DNA from: Myxococcota bacterium
Lineage (GTDB): Bacteria; Myxococcota_A; UBA796; CAJQPC01
Reading direction: 5' to 3'
DNA: 14,427 nucleotides
Assembly: GCA_023150775.1 (NCBI GenBank)
Contig: JAKLKE010000126.1
Coordinates: 1 to 14,427 of the forward strand
Shown: piece after piece, positions 5,581 to 8,413 of the stretch
How the letters are laid out: every line of letters begins with the position of its first letter
Numbering within the stretch: position 1 is the first letter of the stretch
The notes under the pieces: model-generated
Database searches by the model: none
Seen by the model: the letters and a program-made list of their open reading frames with translations, nothing else
What the model was told of the DNA's origin: nothing
Program-made: the position numbers and the translations under genes

Positions 5581-7053
5581 ATGGCCACCACGGTCATGGC
5601 GGGCGCGGTGGAGGGCGTGGACGGCGTCGAGGTGCAGGTCGAGGTAGACCTGGTTCGTCGGCTCCCCCGCGTCACCGTCGTCGGCTTGCCTGCGAGCGCG
5701 GTCAAAGAGAGCACAGAGCGAGTTCGCAGCGCGATCCTCGCCTCTGGGCTCGACTTCCCCAAGCAGCGCGTCACCATCAACCTCGCGCCCGCCGACGTCA
5801 AAAAAGACGGCACGGCCTTTGACCTGGCCGGCGTGATGGCCGTCGGGGAGCTCTCCTTGAGCGGCGCCCTTCGGGACGTGCCCGGCGCCTTGCCCTTGGC
5901 GCTCCTCGCCCGGCAGCGGGGTGTGCGCGCGCTGATCCTCCCTGAAGACTGCGCTGGCCAAGGCGCGGTGGTGCCTGGGCTCAACGTGCTCTCCGCGACA
6001 AACCTCGCTGAGGTCGTCGATTGGCTCAACGGCAAAGACACGCTCAAGAAGGCCAGCTTCGTCTCAGAGCCGCGCCCGGTACATCACGGCGACCTCGCCG
6101 ACGTGCGCGGCCAGGCCCTCGCCCGCCGGGGCTTGGAGATCGCCGCCGCCGGGGGCCACAACCTCTTGCTCATCGGGGCCCCGGGCTCGGGCAAGACGAT
6201 GTTGGCCTCACGCCTCGGCGGGCTCTTGCCGCCGATGACCTTCGAGGAGGCCATCGAGACCACCCGAGTTCATTCCGTCGCGGGCCTGCTCCCTGAACGA
6301 GTGGGCATCTTGGAGCAGCGCCCGTTTCGGAATCCCCATCACTCCATCTCCCCGGCGGGGCTCTTGGGCGGCGCGAGCCTGCGGCCGGGTGAGCTCTCCT
6401 TGGCCCACCACGGCGTGCTCTTCTTGGATGAGCTGCCCGAGTTCAGCCGAGGCACCCTGGAGCAGCTCCGCAGCCCCTTGGAGCGCCGGGAGGTGGTCAT
6501 CGCCCGCAGCGCCGGGGCGGTCACGCTGCCCGCGGCCTGTATGCTCGTCGCGGCGGCCAACCCCTGCGCTTGTGGCTTCTTGGGCCACCCGCACAAGCCC
6601 TGCCGCTGCGGGGAGGCCGCGCTCCGGCGGTATCGCCAGCGGCTCAGCGGCCCGCTCCTCGACCGCATCGACCTCTGCGTGCGCATCGACCCCGTGCACA
6701 GCGAGGAGCTCTTCTGCGATCGGCGCCGGGAGTCGAGCGCTGAGGTGCGGGAGCGGGTCGTCGCCGCCCGCCGGGCCCAGACCGAGCGCTACAAGTCCCT
6801 GCCCATCTTCAACAACGCCATGCTCGACGGCCCCGCCTGCCGCGAGGCCGCCAACACGACGCCGGCGGGGATGCGCCTGCTCCGCGACTCCATGGAGCAC
6901 CTCAGCCTCTCCGCCCGGGCCTGCGACCGGGTGCTCAAGGTCGCCCGCACCATCGCCGACCTCGACGGCGTGGGCCGCGTCGATCTGGAGCACGTCGCCG
7001 AGGCCGTCGCCTTCCGCGCCCAAGACAGCGTCGAAGCCCAGGGGGGCCTGTGA
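5581..7053 (+). CDS. yifB: YifB/ComM-family Mg-chelatase-like AAA+ ATPase
   Basis: The N-terminus MATTVMAGAVEGVDGVEVQVEVD...VVGLPASAVKESTERVRSAI...TINLAPADVKKDG matches the YifB/ComM N-domain (compare E. coli MSLSIVHTRAALGV...TVEVH...MVGLPETTVKEARDRVRSAI...TINLAPADLPKEG). It has a Walker A GAPGSGKT, the Cys cluster 'AANPCACGFLGHPHKPCRCG', and the sensor/ChlI C-terminal region. AGGA lies 6 nt upstream of the ATG at 5581; the longer ORF start at 5548 is less likely. Stop TGA is at 7051-7053. Confidence 0.9.
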   Translation: MATTVMAGAVEGVDGVEVQVEVDLVRRLPRVTVVGLPASAVKESTERVRSAILASGLDFPKQRVTINLAPADVKKDGTAFDLAGVMAVGELSLSGALRDVPGALPLALLARQRGVRALILPEDCAGQGAVVPGLNVLSATNLAEVVDWLNGKDTLKKASFVSEPRPVHHGDLADVRGQALARRGLEIAAAGGHNLLLIGAPGSGKTMLASRLGGLLPPMTFEEAIETTRVHSVAGLLPERVGILEQRPFRNPHHSISPAGLLGGASLRPGELSLAHHGVLFLDELPEFSRGTLEQLRSPLERREVVIARSAGAVTLPAACMLVAAANPCACGFLGHPHKPCRCGEAALRRYRQRLSGPLLDRIDLCVRIDPVHSEELFCDRRRESSAEVRERVVAARRAQTERYKSLPIFNNAMLDGPACREAANTTPAGMRLLRDSMEHLSLSARACDRVLKVARTIADLDGVGRVDLEHVAEAVAFRAQDSVEAQGGL

Positions 7054-7385
7054 GCCCCCGCCGCTTGGGCCTCAGCGTCGCCGCGGCCTGGACCCTCTGC
7101 GTCGTGGACCAGATCGACGGCGACGTCGCCGCCATCGAGCTCGCCGAGTCTCAGCTCATCACGCTGCCGCTCGGCTGCTTGCCCCCGGCTCCCCACGAGG
7201 GCGAGCGCCTGGAGGCCCGCCGGGTGCTCCCCGACGACGACGGCCCGCCTCCCGCCCCCGATTGCCCCTACCAGCTCCGTCGCCCGCGCGGTGACGGCCC
7301 CCCGACGGCGGCCCTCGCGTCGTCTCCTCGTGACCCAACCAACACCAACAACACCCACAACCCAAGACAACGGAGACAGCCATGA
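7050..7385 (+). CDS. small DUF3006-like protein (start uncertain; alternative GTG at 7104)
   Basis: The segment '[41 protein letters not shown]' fits the DUF3006 pattern (vDRiEGd.AVle......i.lP...LP....EGd.l). The GTG at 7050 overlaps the yifB stop (GTGA). The ORF ends in TGA at 7383-7385, overlapping the recA ATG (ATGA). The C-terminal ~45 aa are Pro/Thr/Asn low complexity encoded by a CA-rich tract, so the true extent is uncertain. Confidence 0.5.
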
Positions 7386-8413
7386 TGACCCAGACCACCC
7401 ACCACCCCGACCAGCTCAAGGCCCTCGACGCGGCGCTCAACTCGCTCCACAAGCAGTACGGCCCCGGCGCGGTGATGCGCCTCGACGGCAGCGTCGCCGA
7501 GCAGACGGGCGTGCCCATCTCGACGGGCTCGCTGAGCCTCGACATCGCGCTGGGCATCGGCGGGCTGCCCCGGGGGCGTATGGTCGAGATCTACGGCCCT
7601 GAGGCCAGCGGCAAGACGACCCTCGCCCTGCACGCCATCGCCTCGGTGCAGGCCCAGGGCGGCATCGCCGCGATCATCGACGCCGAGCACGCCCTCGATC
7701 CCAAGTACGCCGCGCACCTCGGCGTGCGCCTCGACCAGCTCCTCGTCTCCCAGCCCGACTCCGGTGAGCAGGGCCTGGAGATCGCCGAGCAGATGTGCCG
7801 CTCCGGCGCCGTGGACCTCATCGTCATCGACTCCGTGGCGGCCTTGGTGCCCGAGGTCGAGCTGGAGGGCCAGATGGGCGATCAGCAGGTGGGGCTCCAG
7901 GCCCGCATGATGTCCAAGGCCCTGCGTAAGCTCACCGGCGTCGTGTCCCGCACCCGCTGCACGGTGATCTTCATCAACCAGCTCCGCCAGAAGATCGGCG
8001 TGGTCTTCGGCCCCTCTGAAGTGACGACGGGCGGCAACGCCCTGAAGTACTACGCCTCGGTGCGCATCGAGGTCCGTCGCGGCGCCAGCATCAAGGTCGG
8101 CGACAAGATCATGGGCGCCAAGACCAACGCCAAGGTGGTGAAGAACAAGCTCGCCGCGCCCTTCCGCAACGGGGAGTTTGACCTGCTCTACGGCGAGGGG
8201 GTCGATCGTCTGGGTGAGCTGGTGGATCTCGGCGAGTCCCACGGCGTCGTGCAGCGGGCGGGGGCCTGGTACGCCTTCGGTGAGGAGCGCCTCGGCCAAG
8301 GCCGAGACAAGGCCCGGGTCACCTTGGCCGAGAACGCCGCCTTGCGCGATCGAATTGAGCAGCTCGTGAAGAGCGCCTCCGGCGTGCCCAACCTCTGCGA
8401 CGAGGTGTGCTGA
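7382..8413 (+). CDS. recA: recombinase RecA
   Basis: Unmistakable RecA sequence: the Walker A '[16 protein letters not shown]', '[14 protein letters not shown]', '[31 protein letters not shown]', and '[19 protein letters not shown]'. Length is 343 aa. GGAG (7372-7375) lies 6 nt before the ATG at 7382. Confidence 0.97.

Follow-up and report, generated by a model that had tools for sequence, protein, structure and literature searches.

A probable sigma-54-controlled and translationally coupled comM–DUF3006-like–recA operon of an uncultured Myxococcota lineage

Gene content of the locus

The window analysed here is a contig of 14,427 nucleotides (nt), with approximately 70% guanine plus cytosine (GC), from an uncultured Myxococcota bacterium, and its products are found in public protein records under the name "Myxococcota bacterium". 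It carries, in direct succession, the ATPase gene comM (yifB), a small open reading frame (ORF) that resembles the DUF3006 family, and the recombinase gene recA (Table 1), which probably form a three-gene operon that is translationally coupled and controlled by sigma-54 and its activator, as far as can be judged from sequence.

Table 1. Features of the comM–small ORF–recA locus, in the coordinates of the window
Feature	Position	Strand	Basis or remarks
Predicted sigma-54 (RpoN) type promoter, TGGCACGCTCCTTGC	5529–5543	+	-24 GG, -12 GC; 37 nt upstream of the comM ATG
comM/yifB	5581–7053	+	AAA+ (MCM/Mg-chelatase-like) ATPase
Junction of the 54-nt in-frame deletion in comM (codons 81–83)	5824–5827	+	Comparison of proteins and contigs
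Small ORF, DUF3006-like, 111 codons, GTG start	7050–7385	+	Conserved frame, purifying selection, predicted barrel
Predicted five-stranded beta-barrel of the small protein (residues 15–77)	7092–7280	+	AlphaFold2
Shine-Dalgarno sequence of recA, GGAGA	7372–7376	+	Located in the 3' part of the small ORF, after a C/A-rich leader (7330–7371)
recA, full-length canonical recombinase	7382–8413	+	TIGR02012, Pfam RecA and RecA_C
Two strong GC-rich hairpins, the second followed by a T-containing tail	8438–8555	+	Fold energy

The domains of the comM product are, in order, an N-terminal Lon-like domain (ChlI), the AAA+ domain (Mg_chelatase), with an embedded cysteine/zinc cluster, and a C-terminal Mg_chelatase_C domain. 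All three Pfam families are matched, and the score on the TIGR00368 model of the YifB family (501 bits) is above the cutoff of 362. The gene is likely to start at the ATG at position 5581, because the N-termini of the homologues and the public annotation, a protein of 490 amino acids (aa; P0009) that is identical to the window product, agree on this codon, while another ATG, found upstream at 5548, is just 5 nt past the -12 element of the promoter. ComM is a branch-migration helicase that works on the products of RecA, and this activity, together with a role in transformation, is known for the ComM proteins of Vibrio, Acinetobacter, and Legionella (10.1101/147660, PMC11612176, PMC12012524). 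By analogy with these species, the ComM of the window may have the same activity and the same role.

The recA product scores 489 bits on the TIGR02012 model (cutoff 325), which places it within this equivalog, and aligns with the RecA of Escherichia coli over residues 10–330 (384 bits). It has the Walker A and Walker B motifs, as well as the L1 and L2 regions (C-terminal tail short and barely acidic; isoelectric point 6.4). No match to a RecX-like gene was found next to recA, where the product of the downstream gene is an alpha/beta hydrolase, or an amidohydrolase, or a protein with weak similarity to SnoaL, and the remark of the initial annotation that the arrangement is unlike the textbook recA–recX pair is borne out. 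An ORF of 168 aa at 8559–9065 was considered as a RecX-like candidate and set aside, given that it has no family match, and that an overlapping hydrolase ORF of 258 aa has support. The region of the two hairpins that follow recA folds at -73.9 kcal/mol (z -3.75; 0 of 200 shuffled sequences fold as well), with a terminator-like site recovered by a scan at 8531–8545, and is the probable end of the operon.

Gene junctions and conservation of the unit

The genes are joined by two overlaps, which the initial annotation had taken to imply a single transcript with translational coupling, and had located correctly to the base. At the first, GTGA (7050–7053), the stop codon of comM (TGA, 7051–7053) shares bases with the GTG start of the small ORF, while at the second, ATGA (7382–7385), the ATG of recA shares bases with the stop codon of the small ORF (TGA, 7383–7385).

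Related loci were gathered through look-ups of the exact proteins, through proteins homologous to ComM or to the small-ORF product, and through a scan of metagenomes with the motif of the small ORF. They represent the same species (L001–L005), close relatives with a ComM identity of 85–90% (L006, L007, L088, and L095), and at least eight more distant lineages (L089–L094 and L096–L102), with identities of 55–64% in ComM and 62–71% in RecA. In every related locus fetched (approximately 12 lineages, ComM identity 55–90%), comM is followed by a homologue of the small ORF, and this by recA, and even when the motif of the small ORF was the only query, comM was found upstream and recA downstream in six of the six loci recovered.

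In the related loci, the start of the small ORF precedes the final base of the comM stop codon by 3–15 nt, mostly in the form of ATGA, and ATG takes the place of the window's GTG start in L088 and L095. At the other end, the TGA of the small ORF either shares 4 nt with the recA start, as ATGA or GTGA, or is located 8–26 nt inside recA, with the exception of L007 and L101 (in the latter of which the genes are truncated), where the junction between the stop codon and recA is of 1 nt only. Both overlaps are thus kept in the relatives, in the conserved stop/start pattern of a coupled operon, and the translation of each downstream gene would be coupled to that of the gene before it.

Shine-Dalgarno motifs of the GGAG type are present upstream of recA in nearly all the lineages, and are weaker in L090. 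The structure predicted for the recA leader does not exceed that of shuffled sequence (z +0.30), and the Shine-Dalgarno sequence is not sequestered by a conserved structure. A GUCUCC...GGAGAC pairing that would mask the ribosome site of recA is predicted in the window, and was rejected, given that L006, L007, and L088 do not retain its upstream arm.

The flanks of the unit are variable. The upstream neighbour may be a gene on the other strand that encodes a vault-protein-like product, an ABC transporter gene, an amidohydrolase gene, or a whole ribosomal RNA (rRNA) operon, while a hydrolase, an amidohydrolase, or a SnoaL-like protein is encoded downstream, and the three-gene unit is intact throughout. 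The genes of diacylglycerol kinase, HU, and GTP cyclohydrolase II (ribA) are conserved downstream, except in L093, where they are found upstream and inverted. The persistence of the gene order and of both overlaps, down to a ComM identity of 55%, while the flanks change, supports the single, translationally coupled transcriptional unit that was originally proposed. The comparison of synteny indicated there as a check has now been run, and the comM–DUF3006–recA order, conserved in the relatives, does not occur in 80 comM loci from other phyla: in none of these does a recA gene follow within 6 kb on the same strand, and none contains a DUF3006-like ORF. These loci were obtained from a ComM scan of species genomes, which was dominated by the universal FLDELPEF motif and returned only distant phyla.

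The small open reading frame

A long open frame means little by itself in DNA of 70% GC, and the relatives were thus compared. In the comM–recA interval of 15 loci, the frame of the small ORF contains no stop codon, in comparison with 15 and 16 stops in the other two frames, and the joint probability of an open frame in 11 lineages, as estimated by shuffling, is approximately 10^-7.5. The gaps of 217–280 nt that the gene callers left as "intergenic" in three loci also contain the small ORF, which overlaps both neighbours. Among the close relatives, the ratio of nonsynonymous to synonymous differences (pN/pS) is 0.28–0.36 in the N-terminal part of the small ORF, which is comparable to the 0.18–0.27 of comM, and 0.32–0.40 in the whole ORF. 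The small ORF is a real gene under purifying selection, and not a chance product of GC-rich DNA, because its frame is kept open, its pN/pS is constrained, and a barrel is predicted with confidence for its product.

In the AlphaFold2 prediction, which was based on 21 sequences of the family, the strands of this barrel are found at residues 15–23, 26–30, 36–40, 53–58, and 74–77. The predicted local distance difference test score (pLDDT) is 86–96 for residues 11–60 and falls below 50 for residues 87–103, and the fold matches are of the OB/S1/CSD type. All the lineages conserve the N-terminal 60–80 residues, in which D, Q, D, E, P, E, and G positions are invariant, while the remainder of the ORF encodes a variable, disordered tail, which runs through the recA leader.

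This tail raises the question of whether the ORF is mainly a relay that carries ribosomes from the end of comM to the recA start, and thereby sets the output of RecA, with a peptide that plays no part in recombination. The tail is always open up to the recA start, is poorly conserved and predicted to be disordered, has a composition that is partly dictated by the ribosome-binding region of recA, and extends for 25–33 codons in the clade of the window and mostly 7–18 elsewhere, all of which would suit a relay. A pure relay would need no folded domain, however, and the invariant positions, the purifying selection, and the confident barrel of the N-terminal part, together with a wider family whose members mostly match DUF3006, make this reading unlikely.

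The affinity of this protein with DUF3006 is indirect. The window product matches the Pfam family (PF11213) at 21.7 bits (E 2.4e-4), below the threshold of 32.3, over positions 2–41 of the 67 in the profile, and weak precomputed matches to DUF3006 exist for two members of the clade. When 1.84 billion proteins were searched with a profile of the clade, 313 representatives were recovered at E ≤ 1e-3, with lengths of 60–120 residues in nearly every case, and 62 of the 81 representatives sampled match DUF3006 at E ≤ 1e-3 (best 2e-18). The DUF3006 label given to the ORF by the initial annotation can thus be retained by way of these intermediates, and not on the score of the window protein itself. 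The clade represents a divergent branch of DUF3006, with which it shares its size and the VVDxI(E/D)G...A.VE...LP...EGD pattern of motifs. It differs from the family in having DQxD (where DRxE is usual), a C-P-x-x-F/L-R-R fifth strand, and a tail that ends on the recA start.

No mention of DUF3006 was found in the literature searched, and the family has no known function. The profile of the small ORF has no meaningful match among the sequences of solved structures, the only fusions in the wider family are tandem repeats of DUF3006, with no informative partner domain, and a tblastn search of plasmids with a canonical DUF3006 protein returned no match. A reading of the hydrophobic N-terminus as a signal peptide or lipoprotein signal was rejected, given that mostly some 10 residues precede the first strand, and that the cysteine is not conserved.

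Many of the DUF3006-like proteins in the metagenomes (P0156–P0236) have arginine-rich, disordered tails that end in "...P", an ending that would result from a stop codon overlapping a downstream CC-ATG-A or CC-GTG-A start. The members of the wider DUF3006 family may thus often be translationally coupled to the gene that follows.

Promoter and regulation

The alignment of the regions upstream of comM revealed the promoter element of the window as a perfect match to the sigma-54 consensus, TGGCAC-N5-TTGC. The element is found 24–42 nt from the comM start in 12 of the 12 related loci, with 0–2 mismatches, and shuffling gives P ≤ 0.005 in 10 of these 12. In a control set of 52 comM loci of other phyla, there was no perfect match, and only two loci had a match with a single mismatch. 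This pattern suggests that the comM–small ORF–recA unit depends on sigma-54. The motif lies outside the interval covered by the initial annotation, which mentioned neither this element nor the deletion in comM.

A LexA box of the Myxococcus xanthus type has matches at chance level only, with none in the promoter regions, and none of seven known LexA box types was found in the 200 nt upstream of comM or the 150 nt upstream of recA in the 12 loci, although some other type of box could exist. A scan for sigma-70 promoters returned no sites, and is uninformative for this phylum. A sigma-54 promoter would render the unit dependent on an ATP-driven enhancer-binding activator, and not on derepression by LexA. 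No activator gene is present in the window.

The three genes might also be adjacent merely by descent, with separate promoters and no functional link, in which case the sigma-54 motif would be a coincidence of GC-rich DNA. Overlaps of four bases are common in compact bacterial genomes, sigma-54-like motifs occur elsewhere in the window (5287–5301, minus strand; 9495–9509), and there is no reliable scan for promoters of the sigma-70 type in this phylum. Simple adjacency is nevertheless very improbable, given that the unit has survived repeated rearrangement of both flanks with both overlaps retained in every lineage, that the position of the motif relative to comM is kept in all 12 loci and is rarely matched in shuffled sequences or control loci, and that the arrangement is absent outside the clade.

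The mode of control that is proposed for the operon also bears on the identity of recA. The sequenced myxobacteria, except Anaeromyxobacter, are reported to have two recA genes with divided functions (PMC7029660), and sigma-54 control with no LexA box would suit a condition-specific copy. The recA of the window might therefore be a specialised second paralogue, expressed with comM under an activator-controlled condition (competence, development, or stress), while a separate and possibly LexA-controlled recA, located elsewhere, does the housekeeping repair. Such a reading can be reconciled with the operon model, in which only the biological role would change, and it is possible, if doubtful. 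The RecA of the window is full-length and canonical, with all its motifs and a high score on the equivalog model, the context is that of a conserved core chromosome, with the downstream genes listed above and an rRNA operon upstream in three lineages, and no second recA was seen within the flanks, which extend for at most 10 kb. Both recA copies found in M. xanthus are reported as monocistronic, and offer no obvious counterpart (PMC7029660). The primary copy is mildly favoured, because the rRNA operon, HU, and ribA genes adjoin the unit.

Neighbouring genes and other observations

A second sigma-54-like motif, CGGCACGCTCCTTGC, is located at 5287–5301 on the minus strand, with the same spacer as the comM promoter and the opposite direction; it precedes the vault-protein-like gene by 64 nt, and is kept in L006, L088, and L095. 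The divergent region of 357 nt between the two motifs contains repeats of the GGGGCAG type. Another perfect sigma-54 consensus, TGGCACGCGGATTGC (9495–9509, plus strand), is found upstream of a GNAT acetyltransferase gene, the ORF of which spans 9533–10180 in the window, and is called from about position 9710 in L001. Sigma-54 promoters would thus seem to be used heavily in this genome.

The vault-protein-like gene (3022–5223, minus strand), which is divergent from comM and is kept in the close relatives L001, L006, and L088, encodes a protein of 733 aa that resembles the eukaryotic major vault protein (MVP), with matches to the Pfam families MVP_shoulder (1.7e-19), Vault_3 (1e-7), and Vault repeat (2e-5), and a weak sequence match to the rat MVP structure 3gf5 (E 1.7e-7). 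The window begins inside a large Ser/Thr protein kinase gene (985 aa in L001), which is followed by that of a conserved protein of 266 aa with no family match; the two occupy 1–2997 (plus strand), and both are kept in the close relatives. The Rfam scan of the window returned no RNA family, and the PADLOC defence models had no match.

In three of the related loci, Rfam identifies a complete or partial rRNA operon (16S-23S-5S) directly upstream of the unit and co-directional with it (L094, 1003–5795; L092, 1–1328; L096, 1–565), and the sigma-54 motif is located between the 5S gene and comM. The unit of L101 (4198–5716) is shortened, with a comM of 271 aa, a small ORF of 66 aa, and a recA of 171 aa, which still overlap or abut, and may represent a decaying copy or an assembly problem. 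Genes with TIR/SEFIR and NB-ARC/TPR domains are found just upstream of this unit.

A proposed model of the operon

In the model favoured here, transcription would begin at the sigma-54 promoter just upstream of comM. The ribosomes that complete comM would stop at a codon that shares bases with the start of the small ORF, and those that complete the small ORF would terminate on, or just inside, the recA start, where the recA Shine-Dalgarno sequence is also located. Because of this coupled translation across both junctions, RecA, which would perform strand exchange, ComM, which would drive the branch migration of the joint molecules, and the small OB/S1-like barrel protein would be made together. 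The barrel protein would then work with either RecA or ComM, its targets being, for instance, single-stranded DNA, the filament, or the helicase. It is likely to be a partner of one of these two proteins, a role that is suggested by its invariable position only, and may serve as an adaptor, as proposed in the initial annotation. It can be proposed more tentatively that the main recombinase of these bacteria is activated, together with ComM and outside the SOS response, by an enhancer-binding activator of sigma-54, and that the DUF3006-type barrel is a new mediator of recombination, with ComM, single-stranded DNA, or the filaments of RecA as its binding partner, which could recruit ComM as DprA does in transformable Gram-negative bacteria.

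A number of observations weigh against this model. The -12 elements are weaker in two of the lineages, with two mismatches, and the k-mer test for enhancer sites upstream of the promoter was not significant, although TGTCG/CGACA and CTGAAA elements are seen by eye to recur in this region. The good Shine-Dalgarno sequence of recA itself could permit independent translation, and recA may have an internal promoter of some other type. Co-transcription, sigma-54 dependence, and coupling are all read from sequence. The invariant residues of the small protein are mostly acidic (D20, D23, E30, and E50), and its barrel is mildly acidic in most members of the family; such a surface is atypical of an OB protein that binds nucleic acids, and the binding of protein is at least as likely as the binding of DNA.

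The comM of the window itself also carries a deletion in its hexamerisation domain. This deletion removes 18 residues, PIALGILAAAGIVPEESL, from the Lon-like domain, which is the hexamerisation scaffold in the structure of ComM (PMC11612176). The ChlI match is broken into two stretches, and an intact Lon-like hexamerisation domain is not found in the window copy. The proteins P0009 (490 aa) and P0010 (508 aa) have 490 identical residues and a single gap of 18 residues, and a full ComM of 508 aa is encoded by L001, which is 100% identical to the window at all the shared bases across 14.4 kb, and by other otherwise identical contigs. The deletion reflects a strain variant or else an error of assembly, and may be genuine, rather than the collapse of a repeat, because the microhomology at its edges is of 2 nt only. 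It has no effect on the conclusions on the type of locus.

The wiring and the predicted regulation of these recombination genes are unusual. The conservation of a unit of ComM and RecA argues that the two proteins act together routinely in these bacteria, and not just in the model competent species, while a sigma-54 promoter would place the capacity for recombination under a signal-dependent activator, a logic that is different from that of the SOS response. The small protein, in turn, provides DUF3006 with a testable hypothesis of partnership with RecA or ComM.

Relation to known systems

As a rule, recA is a monocistronic gene or has recX, cinA, or lexA as its partner, and LexA is its usual regulator, while ComM is known as a transformation helicase that is encoded elsewhere in the genome. 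The cinA–recA operon of Streptococcus pneumoniae and Bacillus subtilis, which is induced in competence, resembles the present locus in that recA is co-transcribed behind another gene from a dedicated, non-SOS promoter that is tied to a physiological programme. The partners here are comM and a DUF3006-like gene, however, the promoter is of the sigma-54 type, rather than a ComX or ComK box, and both junctions overlap. In the overlapping recA–recX operon of mycobacteria and Streptomyces, recA is also joined by overlapping frames to a small gene, that of the modulator RecX, with coupled expression, whereas the small gene of the present unit is upstream of recA and unrelated to RecX, and a helicase gene is included.

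The closest functional parallel is the natural transformation pathway of Gram-negative bacteria, ComM–DprA–RecA, in which RecA performs strand exchange and the hexameric ComM, the architecture of which is conserved here, drives branch migration (10.1101/147660; PMC12012524; PMC11612176). In the species studied, however, DprA recruits ComM, and the genes are not linked to each other, whereas they form one putative operon here, together with a small protein. Within the same phylum, the recA1 and recA2 genes of M. xanthus are each reported to have their own promoter, without being part of an operon (PMC7029660). At least recA1 lacks a LexA box, as does the recA of the window, but no linkage with comM or DUF3006 is described for these genes (PMC7029660). 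The nearest precedents are thus cinA–recA and recA–recX in organisation, and ComM–DprA–RecA in function, and none of them combines these partners, this type of promoter, and a DUF3006 gene.

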